Shown here one piece after another: positions 16,161 to 40,737 of a stretch of DNA of 64,000 nt (position 1 is its first letter; the number at the start of each line of letters is the position of its first letter). The DNA is from a virus (Duplodnaviria; Heunggongvirae; Uroviricota; Caudoviricetes), in IMG/VR virus record IMGVR_UViG_3300028413_000003, positions 40,465 through 104,464 of that record; one strand, 5' to 3'. The translations under genes were made by a program, and so were the position numbers. The notes beneath the pieces were generated by a model. The model saw only the letters and a program-made list of their open reading frames with translations. It was not told where the DNA came from and did no database searches.

Positions 16161-16191
16161 CTAAGGTAAGAATGTGGAAAATTTGGCTTTT

Positions 16192-16235
16192 ACAGATCAA
16201 CAAATTACATTTTTGAGGATTAAATATGGATAATA
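16192..16235. repeat. 44-bp perfect direct repeat, copy 1 (contains start codon of MORN-repeat gene)
   Basis: acagatcaacaaattacatttttgaggattaaatatggataata identical to 16532-16575. Confidence 0.9.
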
Positions 16236-16573
16236 ACCCAGTAATCAATGCAAGTGGCGATAAGCTTTGGTATGAGAATGGTGAACTACATAGAACCAAT
16301 GGACCAGCAATTGAATACACAGATGGTGATAAGCATTGGTATGTGAATGACCAACTGCACAGAACCGATGGACCAGCAGTTGAAAACACAGATGGTGCAA
16401 CGCAGTGGTATGAGAATGGTGAACTACATAGAACCAATGGACCAGCAGTTGAAAACACAGATGGTGCAAAGTTTTGGTATTTAGAGGGCATGCAATGCAG
16501 CTTTGATGAGTGGTGCAAAAGATCCACTCTCACAGATCAACAAATTACATTTTTGAGGATTAAATATGGATAA
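16226..16573 (+). CDS. MORN-repeat-variant protein (4 x 23-aa WYxNGxLHRTxGPA repeats)
   Basis: Internal 69-bp DNA periodicity; repeat units 1 and 3 nearly identical; gene starts in repeat copy 1 and ends in copy 2. Confidence 0.6.
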   Translation: MDNNPVINASGDKLWYENGELHRTNGPAIEYTDGDKHWYVNDQLHRTDGPAVENTDGATQWYENGELHRTNGPAVENTDGAKFWYLEGMQCSFDEWCKRSTLTDQQITFLRIKYG

Positions 16574-16575
16574 TA
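16532..16575. repeat. 44-bp perfect direct repeat, copy 2 (contains stop of MORN gene plus an orphan ATG)
   Basis: Identical to 16192-16235. Confidence 0.9.
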
Positions 16576-25507: not shown

Positions 25508-26107
25508 ATGTGGAGTAAATTAATTGGCGATACCTTATACAGCCTCACAAGTATAGAAGTTATAGCCAAAGATCGGTATGACGGTAATAACCTTGCCTAT
25601 CATAATTGGCGCCATATTTTAAGTTGTTATGATTATTTAGAGATCAACAACGTTCCCTACGATGAGGATCTCGACTGGGCAGTGATGCACCATGACATTG
25701 TATACGACGAACTAGATTGCAAAGAACTGCGCAGCGCACAATGGGTTGAAAAAATGTACCCAAAACGCACAGGTGTGTTTGATATTATAATAGCAACAGC
25801 AGATCACAATATCACAGGCCGAAGTTGGCAATGTGTAGAAATGATCAAAGCCGACTTGCATCAACTCGCAACACCTGCACTTGTACTTGCAAACTATGTT
25901 AAGATGCTAGATGAGAGCACAAAGTTGTACAAAATACCCGATAAGGTGTTTGCAGCAGCCAATCTAGATTATATGTTAAAGCTGCGAGATACCATTTATA
26001 ACAATGTTAAAATTAAAGATCTTGATCCGTTTTGGAATAACGTTTTAGACGGCATTGATTTTACAATACATATCTCTGAGGGTTTTAAAAAGGCTTTGCA
26101 TTACTAA
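25508..26107 (+). CDS. hypothetical protein, possible HD-type phosphohydrolase
   Basis: HNWRH ... MHHDIVYDE spacing resembles an HD motif; tentative. Confidence 0.35.
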   Translation: MWSKLIGDTLYSLTSIEVIAKDRYDGNNLAYHNWRHILSCYDYLEINNVPYDEDLDWAVMHHDIVYDELDCKELRSAQWVEKMYPKRTGVFDIIIATADHNITGRSWQCVEMIKADLHQLATPALVLANYVKMLDESTKLYKIPDKVFAAANLDYMLKLRDTIYNNVKIKDLDPFWNNVLDGIDFTIHISEGFKKALHY

Positions 26108-26150
26108 GCAAAGTCTGTTACTGAATCAGAGTACATCGTGTAATCAGCAC

Positions 26151-26179
26151 TTGACAAGTATTGCAACATGTAGTATAAA
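26151..26179 (+). promoter_or_regulatory. sigma70-like promoter TTGACA-N17-TATAAA (overlaps a TATAAATA late-promoter-like box)
   Basis: -35 26151-26156, -10 26174-26179; upstream of pnuC. Confidence 0.55.
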
Positions 26180-26231
26180 TAACATGTAGACACAAAGAGT
26201 GCTACGTTAACTGCTAAAGGAGTTTTAGCAA

Positions 26232-26855
26232 ATGGATACGATTATTAACTACTTCTCTGGCCCACTAGGTCAGATTGAATTACTAGCCACGGTGCTATTA
26301 ATCGCTAACGTATACTTGTTAGCAAAACAAAAACTCATCAATTATTGGTTTGGATTGGCAGGTGTCCTTGTTATGGGATACGTGTTTATGGAAGTCCAAC
26401 TGTACTCCGACATGCTGTTGCAATGGGCGTTTTATGCGCCGCTGCAAATTGTTGGCTTTGTGATGTGGAAATATGGCAAAACACTAGGCGAAGTTGCCAG
26501 TGACACTCTTGACAGTATGAAGATTGTGACAATTGCAAATACTACAAGAATTTTAATTGCCATTGGCATCTTATTTGGAGCGGTGCTGGTAGGCTTTATA
26601 ATGTCCACCTTTACAGATGCAGCCGTTCCGTATGTTGATGCATTAACCACAACCATGTCAATTGCTGCATCGATCTTGCTGTTGAAAAAGGTTTGGGAAA
26701 ACTGGATCATCTGGATTGCAATGGACTTGATTGCTATTCCGCTTTACTATAGCAGAGAGCTGTATGTAATATCTGGACTGTACGTTGTGTTCCTTGGACT
26801 GGCCACATACGGCGCAGTTACTTGGTACAACGCAATGAAGACACAGGAAGCCTGA
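26232..26855 (+). CDS. pnuC: nicotinamide riboside / NMN transporter PnuC-like
   Basis: 207-aa polytopic membrane protein; followed by nadR-like gene with 2-nt gap. Confidence 0.6.
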   Translation: MDTIINYFSGPLGQIELLATVLLIANVYLLAKQKLINYWFGLAGVLVMGYVFMEVQLYSDMLLQWAFYAPLQIVGFVMWKYGKTLGEVASDTLDSMKIVTIANTTRILIAIGILFGAVLVGFIMSTFTDAAVPYVDALTTTMSIAASILLLKKVWENWIIWIAMDLIAIPLYYSRELYVISGLYVVFLGLATYGAVTWYNAMKTQEA

Positions 26856-26856
26856 T

Positions 26857-27864
26857 ATGACAATCGGCGGTACAATAGGCAAGTTTACAAACTTACACCT
26901 GGGTCATTTGAACATGTTTATCACTGCATTATCTGTAGTAGATCAACTATATATTATGGTCTCTGGAAATGAAACTGATGTTGTTCCGCTGTCCACACGT
27001 TACAAGTGGTTATGCGAACTATTTGCTGATAACCAAAATGTACACATTATCAAACACATAGACAACATCCCGTCGAGCGAAGTAGACGAAAATGGCACAA
27101 TCATAGACCCAACAGTTTGGGACAAATGGAAGGCGGAGTTTGAACTGCACCTCCCCAAGCTTGATTACTTTGTAAGTTCGGATATGTATGGCAAGAAAGC
27201 TGCAGAGGTGCTCGGTTGCCGATGGTTACCAATTGACCCGCATCGTGAAATGCACCCTATTAGCAGCACAGCAATTAGAGAGGCGCTGTTAGAAAATTGG
27301 AGTTTTATGTCAGCACCTGCAAAGCGTAGTTTTCACAAGAGAGTAGCAGTAGTTGGACCGGAATCAACAGGCAAGTCTATATTAGTTGAAAGTTTTCGCT
27401 TGCGCAACATCGGAACTCCTATTCAAGAATACGGCCGCATGATAACTGAAGTAAAAGAAGAAGTTAACGAAAAAGACTTCGAAGCTATTGTCAAAATCCA
27501 AGACAACTGGGTTAATGAATATGCGTACAAGGCAGAAATGCCAGTTACAGTAACTGACACAGAAGCGTTCACTACTTACTTGTTTTCGCACTTGTACCTG
27601 GACAAGCCGTTGGAAATGGCACTGGAGTACGCAAAGAAGCAACACTTTGATTTGTATATTGTTCTGGCGCCTACTGTTAAGTGGGTACAGGACGGAACCA
27701 GAATTGTCGAAAAACAAAAACAACGTGAATGGTTCTTTGAAGAGATGTTGAAATTTTTAGTTGACAACAACCGCAACTATATTGTAATCAGTGACACCGA
27801 CTTTGTCACACGCACCGAACAGGCGCACGCCTCAGTTCTCAAACTAATTAACAGGGGTATATGA
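26857..27864 (+). CDS. nadR: NadR-like bifunctional NMN adenylyltransferase / ribosylnicotinamide kinase (no HTH domain)
   Basis: GKFTNLHLGH nucleotidyltransferase motif, then Walker A VVGPESTGKS. Confidence 0.7.
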   Translation: MTIGGTIGKFTNLHLGHLNMFITALSVVDQLYIMVSGNETDVVPLSTRYKWLCELFADNQNVHIIKHIDNIPSSEVDENGTIIDPTVWDKWKAEFELHLPKLDYFVSSDMYGKKAAEVLGCRWLPIDPHREMHPISSTAIREALLENWSFMSAPAKRSFHKRVAVVGPESTGKSILVESFRLRNIGTPIQEYGRMITEVKEEVNEKDFEAIVKIQDNWVNEYAYKAEMPVTVTDTEAFTTYLFSHLYLDKPLEMALEYAKKQHFDLYIVLAPTVKWVQDGTRIVEKQKQREWFFEEMLKFLVDNNRNYIVISDTDFVTRTEQAHASVLKLINRGI

Positions 27865-27928
27865 TGTTTACACAGAAAGAAAATGGAAGTTGGATGTGGG
27901 CAAAATAACATATCTTGCCACCTAATAC

Positions 27929-27957
27929 TTGACACACGCTTGTTGCGAGTGTATACT
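27929..27957 (+). promoter_or_regulatory. sigma70-like promoter TTGACA-N17-TATACT
   Basis: -35 27929-27934, -10 27952-27957; upstream of natV. Confidence 0.55.
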
Positions 27958-28007
27958 AAAAGCAAGACATAGAGTTTTGCCTAAACACGCTAAAGGAGTT
28001 TTAGCAA

Positions 28008-29123
28008 ATGAAATACGACTTAATTAACGACACTATACATAGCAAACTAAAAGCCACTACTGCACTATCGGAAAATTCCAAAACAGAAATCCGCTACGAC
28101 GCACTGGTGTTCATTGGCAGGTTCCAGCCATTTCACCTGGGGCACAAAGCAGTGGTTGACGCTGCACTGAAACTGGCAAAAGAAGTGATCCTTGTGCTTG
28201 GGTCCAGCTTTAGTGCAAGAAATACTCGCAACCCATTCACGTTTGAAGAACGCAAGTCGATGATCAAGGCGGTGTATCCACAGGACAATGTCAAAGTTGT
28301 GCCAGTGTGTGATTATCCATACGACGACAACAAATGGGTTGCTGCTGTACAATCTGTGGTGTTCAGCGCAATGAAATACTCCCCCGATCCTCTGCGCATT
28401 GGTCTCATTGGCCACGAAAAAGACGGAACCAGCTTTTACTTGAAAATCTTCCCTACATGGGGCAGCGAAAGTGTTGCCAATGTAGATGGAATTGATGCAA
28501 CACCGATCCGTGAAACTATTTTTGAACACGGTCCTTACCGCGGTGTAGAATTATTTATGTGTGATACCATGCCAGCAGAATCTGCTGATATACTGGACGA
28601 CATTGTTAGAGAATGGGCACACGAAGAATTTGCAACACTGTTTGTTGAATACAGTATGATTCAACAATACAAAGAATCCTGGAAATCCGCACCATATGCA
28701 CCCACCTTTGTAACAACTGATGCAGTTGTAGTGCAAAGTGGACACATTTTATTGGTCAAGCGCAAGCATGCACCGGGTATAGGACTTTGGGCACTGCCTG
28801 GTGGATTCCTTAATCCAGGAGAACGCCTCGAGGCCGGTGCGCTGCGCGAGCTAAAAGAAGAAACAAAAATCAAAGTTCCAGTTCCGGTACTGCGCGGCAG
28901 CATCCGGGCATCAAAGACCTTTGATGATCCATTCCGATCAACCCGCGGCCGCACCATTACAACTGCGTTTTTCATCGACCTCGGGTTTGATAAAACTCTG
29001 CCAAAAGTAAAAGGCAGTGACGATGCAGAACTAGCACGATGGGTACCGTTTAACGAAGTAGACCGTACACAAATGTTTGAGGATCACTTTGCGATTGTTG
29101 ACAACTTCATTAACATCGGATAA
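28008..29123 (+). CDS. natV: NatV-like bifunctional NMN adenylyltransferase / Nudix hydrolase
   Basis: FIGRFQPFHLGH NTase motif; Nudix box GGFLNPGERLEAGALRELKEETKI. Confidence 0.8.
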   Translation: MKYDLINDTIHSKLKATTALSENSKTEIRYDALVFIGRFQPFHLGHKAVVDAALKLAKEVILVLGSSFSARNTRNPFTFEERKSMIKAVYPQDNVKVVPVCDYPYDDNKWVAAVQSVVFSAMKYSPDPLRIGLIGHEKDGTSFYLKIFPTWGSESVANVDGIDATPIRETIFEHGPYRGVELFMCDTMPAESADILDDIVREWAHEEFATLFVEYSMIQQYKESWKSAPYAPTFVTTDAVVVQSGHILLVKRKHAPGIGLWALPGGFLNPGERLEAGALRELKEETKIKVPVPVLRGSIRASKTFDDPFRSTRGRTITTAFFIDLGFDKTLPKVKGSDDAELARWVPFNEVDRTQMFEDHFAIVDNFINIG

Positions 29124-29134
29124 GGAACACAACA

Positions 29135-29464
29135 ATGAAAGTAATTAAACCAGGAAAGTTTGGACACAGCTGGGCTACTGAAGTAACATGTTCTGGCTGG
29201 GGAAATGGCGGCAAAGGTTGCGAAGCTATTCTACAAGTTACCCGCAGTGATTTACGATTTTTTCCTGGTGTGTCTGGTGAAAGTTGGGGCAGCAAAGAAA
29301 GTGCAGTTTCATTCGAGTGCATGTGCTGTGGAAAATTAACCGACCTTGGGCGAGATGATTGGCCCGCAGGTTATACAGATCTTGTAAGATGGACAAAGGA
29401 GTGGCAATCCGCTGCTCCTGAATCAACCTTACCCGAAAGTCCGATTCAAAGAGGATCGGCATAA
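29135..29464 (+). CDS. hypothetical protein
   Basis: 109-aa ORF between natV and nadV. Confidence 0.45.
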   Translation: MKVIKPGKFGHSWATEVTCSGWGNGGKGCEAILQVTRSDLRFFPGVSGESWGSKESAVSFECMCCGKLTDLGRDDWPAGYTDLVRWTKEWQSAAPESTLPESPIQRGSA

Positions 29465-29484
29465 CAACTTAGAGGATTTCTAAA

Positions 29485-30912
29485 ATGAAACATAATATTA
29501 TACTACTATCAGACTCGTACAAGTACAGTCAACCACACCAGTTTCCAAAAGGCACACAGTATGTGAGTTCATATATTGAAAGTCGAGGAGGCGAGGAGAA
29601 CTCAGTGTTCTTCGGCGCGCAGGCGTTGATCAAAGAATATCTAATAGGAGAGGTTGTTACCATTGAAATGATTGATGAAGCAGAAATGATCATCACTCAG
29701 CACGGTGAACCTTTCTATAGAGAACTATGGGACATTATTGTTGAGGAATTCAGCGGTCGTCTCCCAATCGAAATCGAAGCAGTTGCCGAAGGCACATACA
29801 TGCCTATTTCAAACGTACAAATGCAGATCATCAACACTGATCCGCGTTTTTGGTGGTTGCCAGGCTTTTTGGAGCCACTTACACTAAGAGGTGTTTGGTA
29901 CCCTTCGACTGTTGCAACAAAATCACGTAAAATGAAAGCTATCATTGCTCGTGCGCTGGCAACAACCAGCGATGTTCCAGTAATGGATCAGATTATGTTC
30001 AAGCTGCACGACTTTGGAGCACGAGGCGCAACATCACACGAAGCTGCAAAGCTTGGTGGAATGGGTCACCTTGTTAACTTTATGGGCAGCGACACCATTG
30101 AAGGAATTGTAGGAGCAAGACGTTACTATGGCGCAGACATGCCAGGATTTTCAATTCCAGCAAGTGAACACTCTACTATCACAAGCTGGGGCAGAGAAAA
30201 CGAAAAAGCTGCCTACGAAAACATGATCGAGCTATTCGGTGGCGAAGGCAAAATTTATGCATGTGTGAGCGACAGCTACAACATCTACGAAGCTATTAAG
30301 ATGTGGGGCGAACTAAAAGAAAAGATCATCGATAAAGGTGGCACATTGGTTGTTCGGCCAGACAGTGGGGATCCGTTGACTGTTCCAATTGATGTTGTAG
30401 AACTTCTAATGGAAGAGTTTGGATTTACTGTTAATTCAAAAGGCTTTAGAATACTGCCGTCCTACATTCGTGTAATTCAAGGCGACGGTATCAGTGAACA
30501 CAGCTTGCCACAATTGATCAATAACTTGATCCGGGCAGGACTGAGCATTGATAATATTGCATTTGGAATGGGCGGGGGATTGCTGCAATTAGTCAACCGC
30601 GATAGCTTAAAGTACGCCATGAAAGCAAGCGCAATTATGGCATCAGATGGCGAGTGGACTGACGTCTTCAAAGACCCAATCCACGGAGGTAAGACTTCAA
30701 AGAAAGGTCGCCTCGGACTTATATACCAAACCGGCGTCGGCGGCGGTAGTTTTCGTACTGTTCCTAAATCTGTTGCAGACAAGAAAGGCAACTTGTTACG
30801 CCCTATTTTCCGCAACGGAAAGCTGTTAATTGAAGATACTTTTGACCAAGTGCGCGAACGTGCTGCACTTAAAGAGGAGGAATACCTTGATGTTGAATTT
30901 GAAAGATACTAA
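29485..30912 (+). CDS. nadV: nicotinamide phosphoribosyltransferase (NAMPT)
   Basis: 475 aa; N-terminal LLSDSYKYSQPHQFP...YVSSYIESRGG typical of NAMPT/PBEF. Confidence 0.85.
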   Translation: MKHNIILLSDSYKYSQPHQFPKGTQYVSSYIESRGGEENSVFFGAQALIKEYLIGEVVTIEMIDEAEMIITQHGEPFYRELWDIIVEEFSGRLPIEIEAVAEGTYMPISNVQMQIINTDPRFWWLPGFLEPLTLRGVWYPSTVATKSRKMKAIIARALATTSDVPVMDQIMFKLHDFGARGATSHEAAKLGGMGHLVNFMGSDTIEGIVGARRYYGADMPGFSIPASEHSTITSWGRENEKAAYENMIELFGGEGKIYACVSDSYNIYEAIKMWGELKEKIIDKGGTLVVRPDSGDPLTVPIDVVELLMEEFGFTVNSKGFRILPSYIRVIQGDGISEHSLPQLINNLIRAGLSIDNIAFGMGGGLLQLVNRDSLKYAMKASAIMASDGEWTDVFKDPIHGGKTSKKGRLGLIYQTGVGGGSFRTVPKSVADKKGNLLRPIFRNGKLLIEDTFDQVRERAALKEEEYLDVEFERY

Positions 30913-31058
30913 CAGACAGGAATACACTGCGTGGGTTGCAAGCGTTTGGAAAGCTAACCACAAACGCATACTAGACGAAAAAATTAATAAAACAATGAAA
31001 TTCAAAAACGAAGATGATTGTTCTGTAACTATTCGTACAACCCAGTGATAATAAAGAT

Positions 31059-31084
31059 AAAGGCGGATTTAGTTCCGCCTTTAT
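31059..31084 (+). terminator. Rho-independent terminator
   Basis: aaaggcgg-attt agtt-ccgccttt hairpin with short T tract. Confidence 0.5.
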
Positions 31085-31146
31085 CATTGACAGCATACAT
31101 ATACAATGCTATTGTACATTATAGCGTATCTAGCAAGGAGACACTG

Positions 31147-31305
31147 ATGAAAATCTTAATAGAATATATTTTGCCCAACGTGGCACTGTTTGGCAGCATC
31201 TATCTGCTTGCAAAATACGTAGAAAATTCAGTCTGGTACTGGATCGAAAACTACGAAGAAGCTCGTGTAACGCTTGATGGCGTTATACAAAAAATCAAAC
31301 TTTAA
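31147..31305 (+). CDS. hypothetical small membrane protein
   Basis: RBS aggaga then ATG 31147; hydrophobic ILPNVALFGSIYLLA. Confidence 0.4.
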   Translation: MKILIEYILPNVALFGSIYLLAKYVENSVWYWIENYEEARVTLDGVIQKIKL

Positions 31306-31331: not shown

Positions 31332-32726
31332 ATGGGTGGTCTAATTTTATCGGGAATTTTGCTCTTTGTTGCACTTGCAGCATTGTTCATTCCCTTTCCA
31401 AAAGAACTTTTACGAATCAAAAAAGTCATTGCAGGCGGCGCATTCGGCGCCTGCACATTGGTACTATCCAGCAGCGCATTCGGCTATAACGATGCAGGAT
31501 TCCAAACGCATGTGCGTACTATCTTTAGTACAGAATCAGCAGTGATGGATACCGGTTGGTATTTTGCAGGATGGGGCATCAGTACAACTTGGCCCAAGTT
31601 TATCACAGTTGTAAACACTGCCAATCCGGATGCTGTTGGAAACGCAGTCAATGCTCCTTACCGTGTGCGATTGGCAGACAACTGGACTGGCGACGTGACG
31701 CAAAGCACAATCTTTCAAATTCCAAACGATCCGGTAGAGTTTGTAGAGATGTCAAAAACCTTCCGAACATTGAGTCAGCTGGTTAATTCCGCACTGATTC
31801 CAGATGTGAATGCAAGTATCGACAGCGTTGCAAACATGTTTACCATGGAAGAATACTACAGCGGCGGACAGCGTGATCAATTCAAGACTGAATTTTATGA
31901 CACAATCACAAAAGGCCGGGCAATGGTGCGCCAAATCAGTCTTAATCAATCAGGCGGAATTGTTCCAAGTAGAGCAAGACCCAATGATGACGAAGCAACT
32001 GAAAACTTAGACCAGGTTGGTGACACTGACGTAAGACAATTAGTGATGGAGAAAATCCTAGATCAAAACGGCGAGCCGATTCGTAGGGAAACAGTTTCTT
32101 CACAGTATGGTATTACAGTAAGCCAGGCGATCCTCGAAGGCATTGACCCGGATGATGAGTACGAGAATCAGATCATTGCACGAAAAGCTGCATCGTCACG
32201 TAGAGTTGTAGCACGTGAACAGCGCTTGGAACAGGAAGAACAGCGTTTGCTGGCCATCCAAACTGGTGCAACCGACATTGCACGTCGCCAGGCCACGGCA
32301 CAAGTTGAACAAATTGAACAAACAACTGGTGCCGAAACTCAAAAGCAGCTGGTACTCATTGCTGCTGGACAACGGTTAGAGCAAGCTGAATTTGCACGTG
32401 AAACGGCCGTTATCGACTTAGAAAGAGCACGAATCGAAGCCGAAAGTGTAACAGTTGCAGCCGACGCTGAAGCATATGCAAAAGAAGCAATTCTACTTGC
32501 TGACGGAGCACTTGCTCAAAAACTTGATGCTTGGGTACAAGCGCAGACAGTATGGGCCGCGGCAGCAGCAACGATCAATGTTCCGAGCACAGTGTTTAAC
32601 AGCGGCAGCGCAGGCGGCGAAGGTGGTACGACCGGGAATGCACTCGGAACAGTTGATCAGTTCATGCAAATGATTATGATTAAGACTGCACAAGATCTGC
32701 AAGTTGATCCAACTATTCGCAACTAA
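31332..32726 (+). CDS. SPFH/band-7-like membrane protein
   Basis: N-terminal TM then long Q/E/A/R coiled-coil (RLEQEEQRLLAIQ...). Confidence 0.5.
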   Translation: MGGLILSGILLFVALAALFIPFPKELLRIKKVIAGGAFGACTLVLSSSAFGYNDAGFQTHVRTIFSTESAVMDTGWYFAGWGISTTWPKFITVVNTANPDAVGNAVNAPYRVRLADNWTGDVTQSTIFQIPNDPVEFVEMSKTFRTLSQLVNSALIPDVNASIDSVANMFTMEEYYSGGQRDQFKTEFYDTITKGRAMVRQISLNQSGGIVPSRARPNDDEATENLDQVGDTDVRQLVMEKILDQNGEPIRRETVSSQYGITVSQAILEGIDPDDEYENQIIARKAASSRRVVAREQRLEQEEQRLLAIQTGATDIARRQATAQVEQIEQTTGAETQKQLVLIAAGQRLEQAEFARETAVIDLERARIEAESVTVAADAEAYAKEAILLADGALAQKLDAWVQAQTVWAAAAATINVPSTVFNSGSAGGEGGTTGNALGTVDQFMQMIMIKTAQDLQVDPTIRN

Positions 32727-35938: not shown

Positions 35939-36013
35939 TCTCCCCGGCGCGCAAGGTGTGCGAGCTGACTGTTAATCAGTTGTAGTCTGGTTCGATTCCA
36001 GAGGGGAGAGCCA
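35939..36013 (+). tRNA. tRNA-Asn (anticodon GUU)
   Basis: Manual cloverleaf: acceptor TCTCCCC/GGGGAGA, loop CTGTTAA, T-loop TTCGATT, CCA encoded. Confidence 0.75.
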
Positions 36014-36352
36014 AATAACAAGAGCTTTGCAATGTATGACTTTCCTATATGGTTGTATTTGACCGCGACAATTTACCGAATAGTTGGTAATAGTGGCTAT
36101 ACATAAAAGTCTCAATCGAGACGTTGGATTGCAAATTCAATAACGGTACTAGATTAGTCGTTATCTAGTTAAATCGCCTGCTATGGTTGAGCCCACCACT
36201 TAGATAAGAGATTCATTGCAAAGTCCACTAAGGCTGTAAATACGAATCCGCTAAGTTAAACTATTGTTTGTTCCCCAAGGGTAGCAAACGCAAGCAGGTG
36301 TGCAAACACGGCAGTCTCATTGCGTAGCAACGGTGACACCTGCTATAAATAA

Positions 36353-36442
36353 GGACAGGTGCCTGAGAGGCCGAAAGGAACGGTTTGCTAAATCGTCGTA
36401 CCGGAAACGGTACCCAGGGTTCGAATCCCTGTCTGTCTGCCA
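36353..36442 (+). tRNA. tRNA-Ser (anticodon GCU), type II long variable arm
   Basis: Anticodon loop TTGCTAA, variable arm CGTACCGGAAACGGTAC, T-loop TTCGAAT, CCA encoded. Confidence 0.8.
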
Positions 36443-36529
36443 TAAATTAAAAGTTATTATGGGCCCACACACCAAACTGGTGCAACAGGTAGGTCCTTTA
36501 GAAGTATAGTAATATACATCCACTAATAC

Positions 36530-36605
36530 GGGGGATTAGCTCATCTGGGAGAGCGCTACATTTGCAATGTAGAGGTGGTCGGGTCGGGACCGACATTCTC
36601 CACCA
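36530..36605 (+). tRNA. tRNA-Ala (anticodon UGC)
   Basis: G3:U70 pair present, loop TTTGCAA, CCA encoded. Confidence 0.8.
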
Positions 36606-36921
36606 ACAACGTTAGATTTGTGCCATGTAAACATAGTTGATGCCACAACAACTTAAGATACTGCATTGGACTGCCGGATAGACACCCCTTCTCGGGTTGC
36701 TCTGGCAGACACCACTTTATGCCTAACATAAGATACTCTCACTAAAGGATGCATACATTGCCTTGGTGAGGAAAGGAAGGTTATGCCCTTCCTGAGAGAT
36801 TAGGGGTTAGCTTAGTTGGGGTATTTAATAATCCTAACGATGCTGCTATAGCAAATAACTGTTTAAGAAAAACAATATACAATTGAGTCAACAGTAACAA
36901 AGTTTTTAACTATCTAAAAAT

Positions 36922-36996
36922 AGTTCGGTAGCTCAAAGGAAGAGCGTTGGTGTTACATACCAAAGGTTGAGATTTCAAAATTCTCTCGGACTACCA
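36922..36996 (+). tRNA. tRNA-Val (anticodon UAC)
   Basis: Acceptor AGTTCGG/TCGGACT, loop GTTACAT, T-loop TTCAAAA (one T-stem mismatch), CCA encoded. Confidence 0.65.
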
Positions 36997-37426
36997 GATC
37001 CCCTACCAGACACAGTGCGCTTGAGATGCCTCACTGTTTAAACATCAGAAGCATTCCGCGTAGCGCAGTACAGCCAGATTGTAAAGATCAAGTAGTACAC
37101 GATAGGCAGCGGCTATCAAAATATTAGAGTTAGGTGTTTAGTCTACGCACTAAACACCCAAGTGGTGGGAAAGAATAGGCGTCAATTGCTAGGCATAGAC
37201 GTGATAAAGTTTGCTTTTAACATATAATGTTTTAAGCATTGGGTCCTATTCAAACAGAATATCCTAGCTTGATTACAGGCGACAACTTGTAATCAAGTGA
37301 CACAACATAGTTCATTGCGTTGTCGCGCAGAAAGCACGCTTGGCTCACACCCAAGAAGATCGGAAATTGGATGACCGAGCTGCGTTCGGCGCAGTGTAGT
37401 GTAAATGTTGGATTGTAATTTTATAT

Positions 37427-37502
37427 GCGGGCGTAGCTCAGTGGTAGTAGCGTTAGTTTTCCAAACTAAATGTCGTCGGTTCGATCCCGATCGCCCGCTC
37501 CA
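37427..37502 (+). tRNA. tRNA-Gly (anticodon UCC)
   Basis: Acceptor GCGGGCG/CGCCCGC, loop TTTCCAA, CCA encoded. Confidence 0.8.
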
Positions 37503-37910
37503 AATAACCCGACCGTATGTGATTTATTATCAAGCAATAAATTATTCACTACGGCGTTACAGTGATCCGTGTGAGGCAATGTATATAATGCAAGGACTCC
37601 GTGATCAATCACTGTTTGAACATCACTTGTCTGAGACTGCAAAGATTGGACCACCTAAGCCGTAAGGTAAACCTGGAACGATAGTATATGGTGTCCAGCA
37701 AGTGTGTATTATTTTTGGTATCCACCGTGGCGTCAAATGTTATGACATAGGGCAGGTGGACGAAGAGACAGCATGTTAGACTGCCAAAATTAACATAGGC
37801 ATACGGGATAGCAAAGAGTAAGAAAGCGACGCATTGCATGAGCGATGTTTGTCACCTCGGAATCCATGGGGACCGCAAGGATACACTTACCGCCTAGCTT
37901 TAATAATAAC

Positions 37911-37987
37911 GCCGTTGTAGCTCAGTCCGGTAGAGCAGTTCCCTTGTAAGGAAAAGGTCGAGGGTTCAAATCCTTCCTGCGGCACCA
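37911..37987 (+). tRNA. tRNA-Thr (anticodon UGU)
   Basis: D-arm GCTCAGTCCGGTAGAGC, loop CTTGTAA, T-loop TTCAAAT, CCA encoded; one acceptor mismatch. Confidence 0.65.
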
Positions 37988-37993
37988 GATTAT

Positions 37994-38087
37994 GCACGGA
38001 GATATAGGCAATTGGAAGCCTTGAATCCATAAGAGGCAGCGGGTGATCCTTTACTGCCAAATGCAAGTTCGAATCTTGCCCTGTGCT
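37994..38087 (+). tRNA. tRNA-like element, anticodon arm unresolved
   Basis: Canonical T-arm GCAAG-TTCGAAT-CTTGC and acceptor GCACGGA/CCTGTGC (6 of 7 bp), but 94 nt long with a 5-bp stem closing a 14-nt loop. Confidence 0.3.
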
Positions 38088-38237
38088 CCTAATTACAGCA
38101 AGTTAAGCTAAAGGTGAAGCAGGCCGCGGAAGGGGCTGATCAAGTGATATTAGTAAGTGGGGATATTAGCTATAAGTCCATTGAAAATGCAATCATTTAT
38201 ATACGGATCGTTACCGTAGCTTGCTACTTACAAGAGG

Positions 38238-38266
38238 TTGACAACACTGTGCAGAAATGCTAGTAT
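38238..38266 (+). promoter_or_regulatory. sigma70-like promoter TTGACA-N17-TAGTAT
   Basis: Upstream of ORF 38294. Confidence 0.5.
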
Positions 38267-38293
38267 AAGTTAACAACAACAAAGAGGCTTACA

Positions 38294-38608
38294 ATGAATA
38301 CGGTTAGTATTAACGGCGTTACATACACTTCAAAAACTGGAGACGTGTCGGTAACGAGAGATGTAATTACAATCAACGGTGAAGAAATTCACGCAACTGG
38401 AATTGTAGAGATACGAGTACTAGAAGGTGTTATTAATAATTTAACATCCAGTGCATCTGTTAATTGCACAACAGTCAACGGCGACATTAAAGCCAGCGGT
38501 AGTGTTAGAAGTGATGATGTCGGCGGCAATGTTAAAGCTGGTGGAAGTGTTAGATGTGACAACGTCGGCGGTTCGGTCAAAGCTGGTGGCAGTGTACGTC
38601 ACTCATGA
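38294..38608 (+). CDS. bactofilin-like repeat protein
   Basis: Repeats GDIKASGSVRSDDVGGNVKAGGSVRCDNVGGSVKAGGSVR. Confidence 0.4.
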   Translation: MNTVSINGVTYTSKTGDVSVTRDVITINGEEIHATGIVEIRVLEGVINNLTSSASVNCTTVNGDIKASGSVRSDDVGGNVKAGGSVRCDNVGGSVKAGGSVRHS

Positions 38609-38615
38609 AGAATAT

Positions 38616-38690
38616 GTCGCGTTAGCAAAATGGTAATGCGCTGCCCTGCAAAGGTAGAAGTTGGTGGTTCGATTCCTCAACGCGACTCCA
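38616..38690 (+). tRNA. tRNA-Cys (anticodon GCA)
   Basis: Acceptor GTCGCGT/ACGCGAC, loop CTGCAAA, CCA encoded; weak T-stem. Confidence 0.65.
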
Positions 38691-38819
38691 AAATACGCAA
38701 GGCTAAGCAGCTGGTGCACCTGTCTGCTTTAAACCTTTGCCAGCTTCGGGTAGGAATGGGATTAATGCGTATCCATTATCCCCGAAGCGACTATAAACAA
38801 CAAACTAGGTAGGCACACT

Positions 38820-39206
38820 ATGAACAGCACAGAACATTGTAAAAGTTTTATTGCAACTATTATCAAAGATAATCCTAGCATTGTCCTTTCGATTTACGGC
38901 ATCGTTTTTGAAGCTGAATTTCTTAGTAAGTTGGTCACGGATGCAACAGCACCTAACAAATGGAAACGTGAATATAAATGCAAGCCTGGTGGCGGGTTAC
39001 AAGCGTTTGATGAATATTCTATGTTTAGCAAAGACGTTACAATTTCCAGAATGGGATATGATAGAATGCCAAAACGAGATGTATCTGACTTTATATCCGA
39101 GAGAGGGTTCTGCCTTGCACCAGACACATACGAAGACAGTGTTGCATTTGTAGTGTTAGAAGATCATAATGGTATCCTTCACTTAGGTGATTACATAGGA
39201 GACTAA
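38820..39206 (+). CDS. hypothetical protein
   Basis: 128-aa ORF within tRNA island. Confidence 0.45.
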   Translation: MNSTEHCKSFIATIIKDNPSIVLSIYGIVFEAEFLSKLVTDATAPNKWKREYKCKPGGGLQAFDEYSMFSKDVTISRMGYDRMPKRDVSDFISERGFCLAPDTYEDSVAFVVLEDHNGILHLGDYIGD

Positions 39207-39431
39207 AAAGAATTTGTATAGTGTAGACGGTCATGCGTGAATTCGCAAAGCACACTCCGTAGGCAATTGCAGCGGGAAGCCCAGACTTTATGAGAACCTG
39301 GTACAAATAGTAAATGTAGTGGCTGTTAACGCCACGGAATGACTGCCGGTCTATATTGGACTATAGCAGCAATCCTATTGTTAACAGCTACTACTTTTAA
39401 TTTAACTCTAACCCAATCAAAAAGGCGCTCA

Positions 39432-39617
39432 ATGAAAATCAAATACAATCAACTTGCTGACTTAATGGACTACATTGACACACAGTCTGATCATATTAAT
39501 GATGCTGCTATGACTAAATTAGAGGGACGCCTAGGCAAAAAAGAAGTCAAGCGCATGCGTAGGCTATATAAGAAAATGTCTGACAAGCTCGACGACGCGC
39601 AATACACTATTAATTAA
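39432..39617 (+). CDS. hypothetical small protein, paralog of 39658..39990
   Basis: MKIKYNQLADLMDYID...GKKEVKRMRRLYKKM versus MKIKRKELRDMLNHIN...GKKQVKRINKMLKKM. Confidence 0.4.
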   Translation: MKIKYNQLADLMDYIDTQSDHINDAAMTKLEGRLGKKEVKRMRRLYKKMSDKLDDAQYTIN

Positions 39618-39657
39618 AATACGGTATCAACTTTTAACTGTAACTCAAGAGGCTATT

Positions 39658-39990
39658 ATGAAAATCAAACGCAAAGAACTTCGAGACATGCTGAATCACA
39701 TCAATGATCAAGATGTCTATATCACTGATGATCATCGGTGCGAGATGGAAGAAGAAATGGGTAAAAAACAAGTCAAACGTATCAACAAGATGCTCAAAAA
39801 AATGGGCAAGAAGTTGACTTCAACACCAACAATTGTATTCATGTCTGCATCAGGCAACAGATACCTTATTAATGCTGCCACATATGAAGCAGATGTAGCA
39901 GCATATCAAGCCGCGCTCGATGCAGGTGATGAAATCACAATGGACGCTTTTGAAACAGGTAGCACAGGCTGGATTTGCGCTCCTGAATAA
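39658..39990 (+). CDS. hypothetical small protein, paralog of 39432..39617
   Basis: See paralog. Confidence 0.45.
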   Translation: MKIKRKELRDMLNHINDQDVYITDDHRCEMEEEMGKKQVKRINKMLKKMGKKLTSTPTIVFMSASGNRYLINAATYEADVAAYQAALDAGDEITMDAFETGSTGWICAPE

Positions 39991-40092
39991 TTTGCGGTAG
40001 TACGAATGCTACATTAAAAAAATCTCAATATGAATTGAGGTTCTAGAGATACAGTAAAACGAGTCTTGTTTAAATAGAAAGTATTTGAATAT

Positions 40093-40177
40093 GCGGGCGT
40101 GGTGGAATTGGCAGACACATCACGTTTAGGTCGTGACACCGCAAGGTTTGGGAGTTCGAGTCTCCCCGCCCGTACCA
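40093..40177 (+). tRNA. tRNA-Leu (anticodon UAG), type II
   Basis: Acceptor GCGGGCG, loop TTTAGGT, long variable arm, T-loop TTCGAGT, CCA encoded. Confidence 0.75.
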
Positions 40178-40199
40178 AATACAATACGCGCCGCGTGGT

Positions 40200-40454
40200 A
40201 TGAAGTTTACTACACATAAATATAAGTACCATCAACAAGGAGACGGTATTATGAATTTTTTAAAAGGTTACAGAACAGTTATTTTCAACATAGCATTATT
40301 TGTTGCAAGCTTGGTCGAAATTGTTGGAATAGTTGATATACTTGCGCCTGGCGCAAGCGCAAGTATTATTCTAGCAGTAAGCATTGCTAACTTGGTGCTG
40401 AGATATATGACAGACACAACAGTTGGCACAAGTACGCAACACGAAACATTATAA
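40200..40454 (+). CDS. hypothetical small membrane protein
   Basis: 84 aa; two hydrophobic helices. Confidence 0.4.
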   Translation: MKFTTHKYKYHQQGDGIMNFLKGYRTVIFNIALFVASLVEIVGIVDILAPGASASIILAVSIANLVLRYMTDTTVGTSTQHETL

Positions 40455-40460
40455 GAACAT

Positions 40461-40535
40461 TGGAGGACGTAGCAGAATGGCGATGCATCAGACTTTGAAT
40501 CTGATTTTTGGGAGGTTCGATTCCTTCTCCTCCAG
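40461..40535 (+). tRNA. tRNA-Gln (anticodon UUG), copy 1
   Basis: Acceptor TGGAGGA/TCCTCCA, stem TCAGA/TCTGA, loop CTTTGAA; 3' CCA not fully encoded. Confidence 0.6.
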
Positions 40536-40661
40536 CCCTAGAATTCCTTAGCTAGTCAAGGAAAGAACATTTAATCGGTGCAGCAAGCTTTTACTCCTAC
40601 CGAAGAGCAGTATCTTAAAGATATACGGACTGCCTTGTGTTGTGGAATTTTATAAGAATAT

Positions 40662-40737
40662 TGGTCAGTAGCTCAATTGGTAGAGCATCTGTTTTTGGTA
40701 CAGAAGGTTGTAGGTTCGAATCCTACCCGACCATCCA
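40662..40737 (+). tRNA. tRNA-Gln (anticodon UUG), copy 2
   Basis: D-arm GCTCAATTGGTAGAGC, stem TCTGT/ACAGA, loop TTTTGGT, CCA encoded. Confidence 0.55.

Follow-up and report, generated by a model that had tools for sequence, protein, structure and literature searches.

A 49-nt leader composed of two hairpins, H1 and H2, precedes the NAD+ genes pnuC, natV and nadV in a 64-kb stretch of phage DNA (the window), and recurs on the natV, nadV and pnuC genes of many phages, with only 20 to 65% identity between the encoded proteins. Comparison of these sequences indicates that the leader is real and structured, and, as judged by sequence searches, a two-hairpin leader on phage NAD+ genes is previously undescribed. 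The novelty lies in the leader, which contains the 22-nt repeat GCTAAAGGAGTTTTAGCAAATG; the gene content belongs to known pathways.

Gene content of the NAD+ module

Judged by its sequence, this region of a large phage genome combines two NAD+ reconstitution routes in one module (Table 1), and a protein identical to that encoded by orf109 occurs on metagenome contigs of up to 251 kb. Profile and PDB searches upheld all four assignments made in a first-pass annotation of this DNA, namely, PnuC, an HTH-less NadR-like enzyme, NatV, and NadV. The profile searches, which that annotation had proposed as a check, returned matches above the curated cutoffs for the PnuC, NatV and NadV profiles, and catalytic motifs were present. 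The NadR-like protein aligned to positions 66 to 407 of the 411 positions of the NadR profile NF005988, displayed the motifs GKFxxxHxGH, ISSTAIR and GPESTGKS, and matched PDB entries 9x6f (E = 2.5e-31; the top-ranked NadR-like structure) and 1lw7 (E = 1e-29). The pnuC stop codon and the nadR start codon meet in the junction TGATATG. Alignment of NatV with 2qjo included the GRFQPFHLGH motif and the Nudix box RELKEET. NadV carries the NAMPT motifs HDFGARG, SEHST, RPDSGD, QGDG and GMGGGLLQ, with the catalytic motifs aligned to the PDB matches.

Both routes have already been named and tested. PnuC and HTH-less NadR constitute NARP3, known from the PnuC-like Bas30_87 and HTH-less NadR-like Bas30_86 proteins of Escherichia phage TrudiRoth and reported to be confined for the most part to Enterobacteriaceae phages (Yan et al. 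2026, Sci Adv, PMC13464706); PDB entry 9x6f is taken, from its residue numbering, to be Bas30_86. NadV and NatV constitute NARP2, known from the NadV/Nampt and NatV/Nmnat pair of Vibrio phage KVP40, which abolishes the protection given by Thoeris and DSR2 (Osterman et al. 2024, bioRxiv 10.1101/2024.02.11.579819). The anti-defence role that the first-pass annotation had proposed agrees with these published experiments on homologues. According to two reports, a pnuC-nadR-nadM cluster occurs in a jumbo phage and NadR, NadM and NadV co-occur in phages (PMC11662467; Iyer et al. 2022, PMC9503650). Co-occurrence and clustering of both routes in phages are already published, and the gene combination is not new.

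The first host-type promoter would drive pnuC and nadR (NARP3) and, by homology to the tested proteins, nicotinamide riboside would be imported, phosphorylated to NMN and adenylated to NAD+. The second promoter would drive natV, orf109, nadV and orf52 (NARP2); by the same homology, NadV would join nicotinamide and PRPP to form NMN, NatV would adenylate NMN, and the Nudix domain of NatV could split ADP-ribose. The description of the two routes as non-redundant holds for their precursors (nicotinamide riboside taken up from outside in one, nicotinamide from within the cell and PRPP in the other) but not for their later steps, since both converge on NMN and two NMNAT domains are present. The proposal that NAD+ could be rebuilt from ADP-ribose was not sustained, because ADP-ribose is not a direct substrate and the Nudix domain would yield AMP and ribose-5-phosphate; PRPP synthetase, which is needed to convert ribose-5-phosphate to PRPP, was not found in the module.

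Searches of Pfam, NCBIfam and PHROG gave no match for orf109. About 14 viral loci have a homologue between natV and nadV, and the relatives form 11 protein clusters in which C19, C29, C62, C64 and C65 are invariant. The AF2 model (pLDDT 62.8) had no fold match. The gene is missing from about half of the leader-carrying loci, including those of DSS3P8 and RcXuper, and, depending on the locus, 0 to about 3 kb separates natV from nadV. The gene order pnuC-(x)-nadR-natV-orf109-nadV is also found in IMG/VR loci L011, L016 and L017. Further downstream, orf52 was independently called as a gene on metagenome contigs, and several loci show weak conservation of its N-terminus after nadV. The next promoter of the promoter list starts at 31087, beyond the end of the module.

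Table 1. Features of the NAD+ module, in window coordinates
Feature	Position	Strand	Details and evidence
Promoter P1	26151..26179	+	TTGACA 26151-26156, 17-nt spacer, TATAAA 26174-26179; read from sequence
Leader copy 1 (pnuC)	26186..26234	+	H1 26186-26205 (GUAGaCAC-AAAGA-GUGCUAC), linker 26206-26212, H2 26213-26229 (GCUAAA-GGAGU-UUUAGC), AA, AUG 26232-26234; covariance model R1 55.4 bits, R2 47.7 bits
pnuC, nicotinamide riboside transporter (NARP3 component)	26232..26855	+	207 aa; PF04973 E 6.6e-46; TIGR01528 96 bits, above cutoff; phrog_1880; PDB 4qtn E 4e-19
Solitary H1-type hairpin in 3' part of pnuC, 93 nt before nadR	26748..26764	+	UAUAGC-AGAGA-GCUGUA; hairpin scan; weak R1 match, E 0.74
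nadR-like, bifunctional NMN adenylyltransferase/ribosylnicotinamide kinase, no HTH (NARP3 component)	26857..27864	+	335 aa; PF01467 + PF13521; phrog_3462 E 5e-75
Promoter P2	27929..27957	+	TTGACA 27929-27934, 17-nt spacer, TATACT 27952-27957; 11/12 match
Leader copy 2 (natV)	27962..28010	+	H1 27962-27980 (GCAAGAC-AUAGA-GUUUUGC), linker 27981-27988, H2 27989-28005 (GCUAAA-GGAGU-UUUAGC), AA, AUG 28008-28010; covariance model R1 57.6 bits, R2 57.2 bits
natV (NadM-Nudix), NMN adenylyltransferase + ADP-ribose pyrophosphatase (NARP2 component)	28008..29123	+	371 aa; PF01467 + PF00293; NF003786 438 bits, cutoff 397; PDB 2qjo E 2.5e-87
orf109, small Cys-rich protein, between natV and nadV	29135..29464	+	Conserved, syntenic
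Leader copy 3 (nadV), no promoter of its own	29441..29489	+	H1 29441-29459 (CCGAUUC-AAAGA-GGAUCGG), linker 29460-29468, H2 29469-29483 (UUAGA-GGAUU-UCUAA), A, AUG 29485-29487; R1 25.8 bits, E 1.9e-4; R2 44.7 bits, E 3.9e-7
nadV, nicotinamide phosphoribosyltransferase (NARP2 component)	29485..30912	+	475 aa; PF18127 + PF04095; NF006629 556 bits, cutoff 405; PDB 7yqo E 5e-126, human NAMPT E 5e-111
orf52, small ORF overlapping nadV end	30890..31048	+	AGGAGG before start; read from sequence
Terminator-like hairpin, 12 bp, GC-rich, marks module end	31056..31085	.	Terminator scan

The two-hairpin leader and its distribution

Sequence search confirmed that GCTAAAGGAGTTTTAGCAAATG occurs verbatim on the + strand at 26213-26234 and 27989-28010, as first reported. 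The window has no further copy when as many as 3 mismatches are allowed, and 100 dinucleotide shuffles gave no match; the repeat corresponds to family D15 of the repeat scan. Each copy ends in the ATG of its gene (pnuC, 26232; natV, 28008) and lies downstream of a sigma-70-like TTGACA-17-TATAxx promoter, starting 33 nt (pnuC) or 31 nt (natV) past the -10 hexamer, in rough agreement with the distance of about 35 nt given previously. Several features had been missed: the similarity between the pnuC and natV copies reaches upstream of the 22 nt (ACA[A/T]AGAGT), the first codons of the two genes are related through indels, a 6-bp inverted repeat (GCTAAA/TTTAGC) within GCTAAAGGAGTTTTAGCAAATG places GGAGT in a loop, and a degenerate third copy precedes nadV. 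The first-pass reading of co-regulated, perhaps duplicated, cassettes therefore falls short, since GCTAAAGGAGTTTTAGCAAATG is the Shine-Dalgarno (SD) hairpin half of a covarying two-hairpin leader that is also present before nadV and in many phages. A U-A pair common to the pnuC and natV leaders, at a position where most relatives have A-U, is sequence evidence for copying or conversion between the two. Another duplicated initiation region is present in the window (16187-16235 and 16527-16575), the second copy of which precedes only 10 codons.

Within the leader, GCTAAAGGAGTTTTAGCAAATG forms the 3' half. H1 is stable (median, -7.5 kcal/mol), and a C-G or G-C pair closes its A-N-W-G-A pentaloop. 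An A/C-rich linker of 7 to 14 nt separates H1 from H2, a weak A/U-rich hairpin of 6 to 7 bp (median, -3 kcal/mol) that carries the SD sequence GGAGU in its loop, and the start codon lies 0 to 3 nt past H2. Where a promoter is present, H1 begins 4 to 10 nt past the -10 hexamer (6 nt for P1 and 4 nt for P2) and would be at or close to the expected 5' end of the transcript. The H1 of copy 3 falls in the last codons of orf109; the R1 seed contained copies 1 and 2 and not copy 3. The solitary H1-type hairpin in pnuC is not conserved in L011, L016 and L017, and its membership of the leader family is uncertain.

In a MAFFT alignment of 21 leaders, built without structure information, 95.6% of cells were paired and compensatory changes were found in 11 of the 13 pairs. 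The covariation score was 0.775 for these leaders versus 0.187 in shuffles, none of 500 reaching 0.775, and at most 0.136 with slid partners. A model-based alignment of 54 distinct leaders, which leans towards the modelled structure, was 96.8% paired, with 301 double-sided changes versus 88.8 expected. H1 was never used as a criterion for selecting sequences; H2 instances were first gathered by a script seeking such hairpins. The H1 loop is invariant at A1 (53/53), G4 (54/54) and A5 (54/54), and its closing pair alternates between C-G (32 leaders) and G-C (17 leaders). The H2 loop reads GGAGU or GGAGC in 52/53 leaders; the nadV leader of the window has GGAUU. In longer native context, the folding stability of H2 was indistinguishable from that of shuffled sequence (z, 0.2 to -2.0). 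The case for H2 stands on covariation and not on energy.

The covariance model detected only the pnuC, natV and nadV leaders in the window (next best match, 14 bits) and, in the complete 146-kb genome of roseophage DSS3P8, those of natV and nadV alone. In 36 sources, it gave 68 matches with E ≤ 1, each on the same strand as the gene and almost all at natV, nadV or pnuC starts, every one in a single fixed orientation and register relative to the start codon. A tally of matches against gene coordinates assigned a leader to 27/34 natV, 27/33 nadV and 4/4 pnuC loci. An unbiased pattern scan of IMG/VR yielded 38 further contigs, one of which passed the model, its two matches preceding natV and nadV. 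GGAGN-loop hairpins adjoining a start codon numbered three in the window, two of them at NAD+ genes; at annotated gene starts of DSS3P8, they were found at natV and nadV only. The leader is also found outside the NAD+ genes, preceding a MORN-repeat gene (L027), a gene for a conserved protein of 120 to 136 aa (L017 and L032), a 213-aa ORF (L014) and a 108-aa ORF (L026), all of which adjoin the NAD+ module. It is absent from the natV genes of KVP40-like phages, RB16, phiM7, CcrBL10 and Papperlapapp, indicating that NARP2 function does not require it, and from bacterial natV loci of Comamonas, Pseudomonadales and Pseudobdellovibrionaceae genomes. Leaders are more alike within than between genomes (22/22 in the window, about 50 nt in L011, and 48 identical nt between natV and the MORN gene in L027). 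The carrier contigs look very diverse, hosts being known for only two, and include siphovirus-like roseophages unrelated to T4. No Rfam family, including the NAD+ riboswitch classes, matched the leader at E ≤ 10.

Proposed role of the leader and alternative explanations

The leader is probably, if far from certainly, a cis-acting, portable initiation and stability cassette that travels with NAD+ genes. H1 would shield the mRNA 5' end and insulate it, and H2 would present the SD sequence for fast 30S docking and then melt; pnuC, natV and nadV would thereby share translational behaviour. We infer that the leader acts at the RNA level and in this direction, and that it provides shared post-transcriptional control of the NAD+ genes. 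Since the nadV copy of the window has no promoter, H1 cannot always be a 5'-terminal stabilizer. The invariant bases of the H1 loop suggest that a trans-acting factor may read this hairpin.

Lambda boxB, the MS2 operator and IREs are protein-binding hairpins with a conserved loop and a variable stem, and H1, with invariant loop bases on a freely varying stem, has this look. The leader might then be a regulated translational operator, a protein binding the H1 loop, and possibly H2, to repress or activate pnuC, natV and nadV together; we regard this as a serious but unlikely explanation. Either a host factor or a phage protein could be the binder; for the latter, orf109, NatV or NadV might act on the mRNAs that encode them, or another early protein might be used. 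Such control would restrain a pathway that consumes PRPP and is toxic on overexpression. It would fit the use of one leader on three genes of a single pathway, the embedding of the conserved Cys4 protein orf109 in the operon, and the burden ascribed to NARP2, which could not be cloned from KVP40 in E. coli because of its toxicity (Osterman et al. 2024). However, Pfam, NCBIfam and PHROG detected no RNA-binding domain in any module protein, the orf109 model is of low confidence and had no fold match, orf109 is missing from about half of the leader loci, and the diversity of the carrier contigs speaks against a host-specific factor.

A small riboswitch is quite improbable. H1 and H2 would sense NAD+, NMN, ADP-ribose, nicotinamide, PRPP or a cyclic ADPR immune signal and open or close the SD hairpin, NAD+ rebuilding being translated only when needed. 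The guanidine-II (mini-ykkC) riboswitch consists of two small hairpins with conserved loops near the SD sequence, a layout that the leader shares, and NAD+ riboswitches occur upstream of bacterial nadA and pnuC genes; two genome-scale scans also found the leader only at genes of a single metabolic pathway. Against this, only three invariant non-SD nucleotides are available for a ligand pocket, the H1 and H2 loops are neither alike nor complementary, inspection of the leaders by eye revealed no obvious conserved alternative pairing, Rfam gave no riboswitch match, bacterial natV loci lack the leader, and a few neighbouring non-NAD+ genes bear it.

The leaders could also be DNA-level recombination cassettes comparable to the promoter/stem-loop cassettes (PeSLs) documented in T4-type phages (Arbiol 2010; Comeau 2014, PMC4122927). 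Crossovers within short conserved promoter/SD modules would shuffle accessory genes, and the 22-mers, devoid of RNA function, would owe their identity to duplication or gene conversion. The greater likeness of leaders within single genomes, the variable natV-nadV content and the other duplicated initiation region of the window would be explained. This reading is nonetheless very improbable, since such cassettes need sequence identity and not pairing, whereas the stems change freely and always on both sides, and all matches keep one orientation and register to the start codon. Furthermore, the stem-loop of PeSLs is a terminator located before the promoter, whereas here both hairpins would be transcribed and one contains the SD sequence. 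Recombination may account for the spread of the copies but not for the retention of their structure.

It is barely credible that an endoribonuclease with sequence and structure specificity targets the GGAG-in-loop hairpin and switches off early genes later in infection: T4 RegB cuts GGAG, and rarely GGAU, in early SD sequences, in keeping with the H2 loops of the leaders and with host-type early promoters, but RegB is to our knowledge confined to T4-like phages, siphovirus-like roseophages carry the leader, and H1 is left unexplained.

Comparison with known systems

Like NARP2, the window encodes a NAMPT homologue together with a bifunctional NMNAT-Nudix homologue, and NARP2-type activity of its NatV and NadV is predicted from sequence. 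As differences from NARP2, NatV shares only about 36% identity with its counterpart in the KVP40-like phage ValKK3, a conserved Cys4 ORF sits between natV and nadV, and both genes bear the two-hairpin leader, which the KVP40-like locus lacks. Like NARP3, the window has a two-gene unit for a nicotinamide riboside transporter and an HTH-less NMNAT-RNK enzyme. This unit differs from NARP3 in being about 29 to 34% identical to cultured-phage homologues, in residing in an uncultured jumbo phage where it is joined to NARP2 in one module, and in the structured leader of pnuC. As in the jumbo-phage pnuC-nadR-nadM clusters, both routes are physically clustered in one genome; the passages on these clusters retrieved from the reports make no mention of a shared leader RNA beside them (PMC11662467; PMC9503650).

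With PeSLs, which have been implicated in gene shuffling, the leader regions share a short repeated sigma-70-like promoter, SD sequence and start codon before accessory genes. They differ in that the leader hairpins would lie within the transcript, one of them with the SD sequence, both covary, and one copy is promoterless. The leader resembles mini-ykkC in its two small conserved-loop hairpins beside the SD sequence, and the NAD+ riboswitches (nadA and pnuC motifs) as a cis RNA element before NAD+ genes including pnuC; unlike mini-ykkC, it has two dissimilar loops, neither of them ACGR, and no Rfam family matches. The placement of a GGA/GGAG SD sequence in a short hairpin loop recalls CsrA/RsmE sites and T4 RegB targets. 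CsrA usually has a two-site arrangement, which the leader does not offer because H1 lacks GGA. Finally, the 5' UTR of E. coli ompA combines a 5'-terminal stabilizer hairpin with a second hairpin beside the ribosome-binding site. The leader would similarly have a stem-loop at the mRNA 5' end and a second hairpin beside the ribosome-binding site; unlike the ompA 5' UTR, it is much shorter (49 nt), has an invariant H1 loop sequence and carries the SD sequence inside the second loop.

NAD+ genes of the module

The first-pass annotation read the module as two complete, non-redundant routes to NAD+, formed by PnuC plus a NadR-like enzyme lacking the HTH and by NatV plus NadV. Profile searches and comparisons with PDB structures bore out these enzyme assignments (see the table), but the combination is already published as NARP3 (PnuC and HTH-less NadR, Bas30_87/Bas30_86) and NARP2 (NadV and NatV, phage KVP40). 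The pnuC product is a PnuC-type nicotinamide riboside transporter, as in NARP3, with a W-x-x-W segment aligned to PDB 4qtn. The alignment of the NadR-like protein spans positions 66 to 407 of the 411-position NadR profile, indicating that, as in the NARP3 enzyme, the NMNAT and ribosylnicotinamide-kinase (RNK) domains are not preceded by an N-terminal HTH. The closest solved relative of this protein is 9x6f, which is taken to be the phage enzyme Bas30_86 from its residue numbering, followed by Haemophilus influenzae NadR (1lw7). The equivalents of 9x6f residues K10/F11, S37, P84, G89, F110, S112, and D275 are kept, R/K/R stands in place of K163/R167/K168, and the alignment is ambiguous at the equivalents of E80, D115, and E230. 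The pnuC stop and nadR-like start codons overlap (TGATATG, 26853-26859) downstream of a single promoter, in the one-operon arrangement of NARP3. NatV is of the KVP40 type, with its HxGH motif (GRFQPFHLGH) and Nudix box intact in the alignment to 2qjo, and is encoded 361 nt upstream of nadV. In the alignment to 7yqo and human NAMPT, NadV keeps HDFGARG, SEHST, RPDSGD, QGDG, and GMGGGLLQ, motifs whose residues have assigned catalytic roles, and is predicted from its sequence to be an Nampt homologue with an intact active site, as in NARP2. The two routes are only partly non-redundant, because the NMN-to-NAD+ step is common to both. ADP-ribose, also proposed as a source of NAD+, is not a direct one; it could contribute only indirectly, via ribose-5-phosphate and a PRPP synthetase, which the module does not encode.

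Features of the NAD+ module in the window and, with locus prefix, leader-bearing genes of other loci
Feature	Coordinates	Description	Evidence or remark
199-aa ORF	25508-26107	just upstream of the pnuC promoter (P1)	WRH...HHD motif
P1	26151-26179	promoter before the pnuC 22-mer	TTGACA-17-TATAAA; near-consensus sigma-70
pnuC leader	26186-26234	two-hairpin leader
pnuC 22-mer	26213-26234	first copy
pnuC	26232-26855	PnuC transporter	PF04973 E 6.6e-46; TIGR01528 above cutoff; PDB 4qtn E 4e-19
nadR-like	26857-27864	NMNAT and RNK domains	PF01467 and PF13521
P2	27929-27957	promoter before the natV 22-mer	TTGACA-17-TATACT; near-consensus sigma-70
natV leader	27962-28010	two-hairpin leader
natV 22-mer	27989-28010	second copy
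natV	28008-29123	NadM-type NMNAT-Nudix fusion	NF003786 438 bits (cutoff 397); PDB 2qjo E 2.5e-87
orf109	29135-29464	109 aa, between natV and nadV	without family assignment
nadV leader	29441-29489	two-hairpin leader
nadV	29485-30912	NAMPT	NF006629 556 bits (cutoff 405); human NAMPT E 5e-111
orf52	30890-31048	52-aa ORF overlapping the nadV end
GC-rich hairpin	31056-31085	closes the module
Non-NAD+ leader gene	L017:2361-2770	conserved 120-136-aa family	motif GEDPNCD...HxQPDLG...WGSGG
Non-NAD+ leader gene	L032:5543-5999	conserved 120-136-aa family	same motif
Non-NAD+ leader gene	L014:5222-5909	213-aa ORF
Non-NAD+ leader gene	L026:5370-5741	108-aa ORF (L026:5415-5741)
Non-NAD+ leader gene	L027:3436-4195	MORN-repeat protein	leader equals the natV leader over 48 nt

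NAD+ depletion is among the commonest bacterial anti-phage strategies, and the known phage answers to it are NARP1 to NARP3. The NadV and NatV pair of KVP40 abolishes type I Thoeris and DSR2 defence, raises NAD+, and is toxic upon overexpression, restoration of NAD+ and defeat of NAD+-depleting defence by NARP2 having been demonstrated for the KVP40 proteins only (Osterman et al. 2024, 10.1101/2024.02.11.579819). PnuC and HTH-less NadR convert imported nicotinamide riboside (NR) to NAD+ and defeat Sir2-HerA and DSR1, with NR-dependent restoration of NAD+ against these systems demonstrated for Bas30_86/87 only (Yan et al. 2026, PMC13464706). One survey notes possible co-occurrence of NadR with NadM and NadV (Iyer et al. 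2022, PMC9503650), and a pnuC-nadR-nadM cluster of a jumbo phage is drawn in another report (PMC11662467). Among phage records, NadV occurs in 2,017, a NadR-like protein in 785, PnuC in 754, and NatV in 478. The order pnuC-(x)-nadR-natV-orf109-nadV recurs in three further IMG/VR contigs, with nadE added in one. A nadE gene, encoding NAD synthase, is inserted in or beside the module at L017:3479-4333 (an IMG/VR contig) and L048:1-583 (Xanthomonas phage X1), and these insertions show a further expansion of phage NAD+ gene sets. No close DNA relative of the window was present among 50,697 phage records, in which only a 52-nt stretch of nadV matched.

Two companion genes lack a recognized family. 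The orf109 protein, which has invariant cysteines (C19, C29, C62, C64, and C65), is encoded between natV and nadV in ~14 viral loci at ~50 to 60% identity, and its homologues form 11 protein clusters. Searches of Pfam, NCBIfam, and PHROGs assigned it to no family, even with the E value relaxed to 5; its AF2 model had a pLDDT of 62.8, and the top Foldseek match in the PDB had an E value of 0.55. Gp111 of roseophage DSS3P8, encoded at the same position, is not homologous. In this NARP2 lineage, orf109 may be a third component that has gone unrecognised. The 199-aa protein has homologues (33 to 48% identity) encoded near natV in loci L003, L007, L010/L034, and L014/15/29 and has no Pfam, PHROG, or PDB match; nothing supports reading its HHD motif as HD-like. 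The module is directly followed by a gene for an SPFH/Band-7 protein (31332-32726), and SPFH/flotillin genes also adjoin natV in Escherichia phage RB16 and Brevundimonas phage Papperlapapp. Sixteen tRNA genes cluster on the + strand at 35939-47274. The identical orf109 protein is encoded on metagenome contigs of up to 251 kb, indicating that the window probably comes from a jumbo phage, and this phage was found in several ENA and JGI samples at >99.7% identity.

A two-hairpin leader at the starts of the NAD+ genes

The identical translation-initiation region claimed for pnuC and natV was confirmed: both copies of the 22-mer GCTAAAGGAGTTTTAGCAAATG end in the ATG of a long ORF. No further copy was found in the window with three mismatches allowed, and 0 of 100 dinucleotide shuffles matched. 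Alignment of the upstream regions extended the likeness to both sides of the 22-mer, with a common ACA[A/T]AGAGT block and first codons related through indels. The exact 22-mer had no match in IMG/VR, indicating that the stem variant of the window is private to this phage. Seven metagenome contigs >99.7% identical to the window contained no SNP in any leader and are uninformative for conservation. Other non-tRNA repeats of comparable quality are few in the window. A 49-nt initiation region (SD and ATGGATAAT) is repeated with 96% identity at 16187-16235 and 16527-16575, on either side of a MORN-repeat gene (16226-16573) that holds three 69-nt tandem units; the copy at 16527-16575 looks like a duplication remnant, since only a 10-codon ORF follows. 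Two 56-nt promoter-like cassettes (TTGACAC-N17-TTACAC/GCT; 43863-43918 and 44100-44155), 93% identical and 237 nt apart, sit in the tRNA region with no obvious ORF downstream and could drive tRNAs or small RNAs.

The 22-mer contains a GCUAAA/UUUAGC inverted repeat around GGAGU, which gives, in RNA, a 6-bp hairpin (H2) that has the Shine-Dalgarno (SD) sequence in its loop and ends 2 bases before the AUG. Three IMG/VR loci containing all the genes have pnuC, natV, and nadV leaders of like design with another stem, GCAAAA/UUUUGC, which differs from that of the window by a U-A to A-U swap, and with an upstream hairpin carrying a CAGAGAG-type loop. Starts of this kind were collected by a mechanical scan for a stem of at least 5 bp, an SD-containing loop, and a start codon within 4 nt. 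In the window, GGAG-loop hairpins occurred at three starts (pnuC, natV, and an unrelated gene at 14933), and the nadV start passed with a GGAUU loop. The hairpin of the unrelated gene, the sole other gene start of the window with a GGAG loop, spans 14916-14935 (GAUUU-GGAGA-AAAUU, then AA and AUG), is not accompanied by an upstream hairpin, and starts a 102-aa ORF. Over 35 natV loci, almost all natV and nadV starts had such hairpins, and 15 or more different stem sequences were represented.

The full design, read from the 95 nt upstream of all scan-positive starts, consists of an upstream hairpin (H1) with a variable 5- to 8-bp stem, a C-G or G-C closing pair, and an A-N-W-G-A pentaloop, an A/C-rich linker of 7 to 14 nt, and H2 with a GGAGU loop and the start codon 0 to 3 nt downstream. 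H1 is stable (median energy, -7.5 kcal/mol) and H2 is weak (-3.0 kcal/mol). The spacing from SD to AUG is 7 to 11 nt. Since the SD is in the loop and the AUG lies 0 to 3 nt past the stem, the 3' strand of H2 must melt during initiation. Of 54 leaders, ~22, including those of pnuC and natV in the window, have a promoter (10 or more of 12 consensus positions matched) that ends 4 to 10 nt before H1, which should then form the 5' end of the transcript. Some nadV leaders, that of the window among them, have no promoter, and their H1 shares sequence with the 3' end of the ORF before it. Within pnuC, 93 nt upstream of nadR, there is a lone H1-type hairpin (26748-26764) whose loop is the canonical C-AGAGA-G; the other three loci with pnuC do not conserve it, and its membership in the leader family is uncertain. 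Neither hairpin is followed by a U-tract, and reading H1 or H2 as a terminator or attenuator was therefore rejected; an IRE-like reading of CAGUGAG loops fails since most loops are CAGAGAG or GAUAGAC.

Because folding-energy z-scores of the hairpins were weak, we relied on covariation. In a plain MAFFT alignment of 21 leaders, 95.6% of the cells were standard pairs, and compensatory (double-sided) changes were found at 11 of 13 pairs (12 of 13 in the model alignment). The covariation score was 0.775, versus 0.187 for shuffles (0 of 500 reached the observed score) and at most 0.136 with partners slid by 1 to 3 columns, the slid controls correcting for phylogeny, which shuffles do not. The score is 4 to 5 times that of both controls, and the leader thus displays the compensatory substitutions of a structured cis-regulatory RNA. 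H2 instances were first collected by a hairpin-seeking script, a bias from which the H1 and MAFFT-based counts are free. Alignment of 54 distinct leaders, fitted to a covariance model, gave 96.8% paired cells and 301 double-sided changes versus 88.8 expected. All sequences have A, G, and A at positions 1, 4, and 5 of the H1 loop, whose closing pair may be C-G (n = 32) or the reverse, G-C (n = 17). Stems that vary around constant loops are the opposite of a palindromic operator, which eliminated a DNA operator for a dimeric repressor (NadR, NrtR, or NiaR).

Distribution of the leader

A first covariance model (R1), built from the 21-leader MAFFT alignment and applied unfiltered to the entire window, recovered both seed copies and the non-seed nadV leader (E = 1.9e-4), everything else having an E value of at least 0.19. 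With a second model (R2), built from all hits, the three window copies scored 57, 48, and 45 bits versus 14 bits for the next best. Over 36 sources (478 kb), R1 had 68 hits (E ≤ 1), each on the same strand as the gene, which by comparison with gene coordinates precede natV in 27 of 34 loci, nadV in 27 of 33, pnuC in 4 of 4, and a few adjacent genes. Genes without an evident NAD+ role that carry a two-hairpin leader are few and lie next to natV or pnuC (see the table). In the complete DSS3P8 genome (146 kb, 229 CDS), both models matched only the leaders of natV (gp110) and nadV (gp112), which are also the sole GGAGN-loop hairpins adjoining an annotated start codon. An unbiased search of IMG/VR with the pattern CAGAGAG-N12-24-AAGGAGTTTTT gave 50 stretches, 12 of them from natV contigs already in the set; of the 38 new stretches, the model accepted only 1, with one hit ahead of natV and one ahead of nadV.

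No leader copy was found at the bacterial natV loci of Comamonas, Pseudomonadales, and Pseudobdellovibrionaceae genomes, and one 8-kb contig binned as Sulfurovum contained a weak copy. The distant cultured NARP2 phage Aeh1 has a two-hairpin leader with another H1 loop, Xanthomonas phage X1 and Stenotrophomonas phage Mendera have H2 only, and phiM7, RB16, ValKK3 (KVP40-like), CcrBL10, and Papperlapapp have neither hairpin. Rfam 15, including the NAD+ riboswitch classes (nadA and pnuC motifs), gave no leader match at E ≤ 10 in window positions 26000-31200, and over 12 leader-bearing loci only tRNAs reached the gathering score. Our literature search yielded no description of the leader. This conserved, structured leader is for the most part confined to NAD+ salvage genes of phages and is absent from Rfam and the searched literature.

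Possible modes of action and significance

The leader is best read as a cis-acting RNA cassette that would give NAD+ genes a common translation and stability and would move with them: H1 would serve to insulate the 5' end and keep it stable, and H2 would present the SD before opening. The constancy of its loop suggests that H1 is recognised by some factor, and we keep as rivals a regulated operator bound by a protein and a ligand sensor. As a minimal riboswitch or the operator of a metabolite-responsive protein, the leader would make translation of the NAD+ genes depend on how the NAD+ conflict stands, a reading that we consider improbable. The sensed state could be, e.g., a low level of NAD+, an increase in ADP-ribose or nicotinamide, or an immune signal of the cyclic-ADPR kind, and the costly, PRPP-draining counter-defence would be on only when a host NADase fires.

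A constitutive cassette would be a modest result and a sensor of NAD+ state an important one, the first RNA element dedicated to the control of a phage anti-defence pathway. NARP work so far has concerned enzymes, and Rfam and the searched literature contained no control element for NARP expression. The leader is the part worth follow-up. Near-exclusive to natV, nadV, and pnuC across distant phages, it offers a cheaply testable handle on expression control, with culturable carriers in DSS3P8/Ruegeria and RcXuper/Rhodobacter. It is also a sequence-independent marker for NAD+ counter-defence modules, through which unannotated companions (orf109, the 199-aa protein, and the 120-136-aa family) can be found, and a compact natural expression cassette of promoter, 5' hairpin, and displayed SD, evidently working in varied carrier phages.

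The RNA cassette has a further rival, a recombination cassette of the PeSL type acting purely at the DNA level, which explains the likeness of copies within one genome: the pnuC and natV copies of the window share the same derived U-A pair, leaders are identical over 48 to 50 nt within L011 and within L027, and the window has another duplicated initiation region (16187/16527). Such a cassette leaves the compensatory changes unexplained, and its layout also differs from that of the leader. In a PeSL, the early promoter comes directly after a stem-loop (terminator) and leads to an SD and a start codon, whereas the window leaders have both hairpins downstream of the -10 element and, at nadV, dispense with the promoter altogether.
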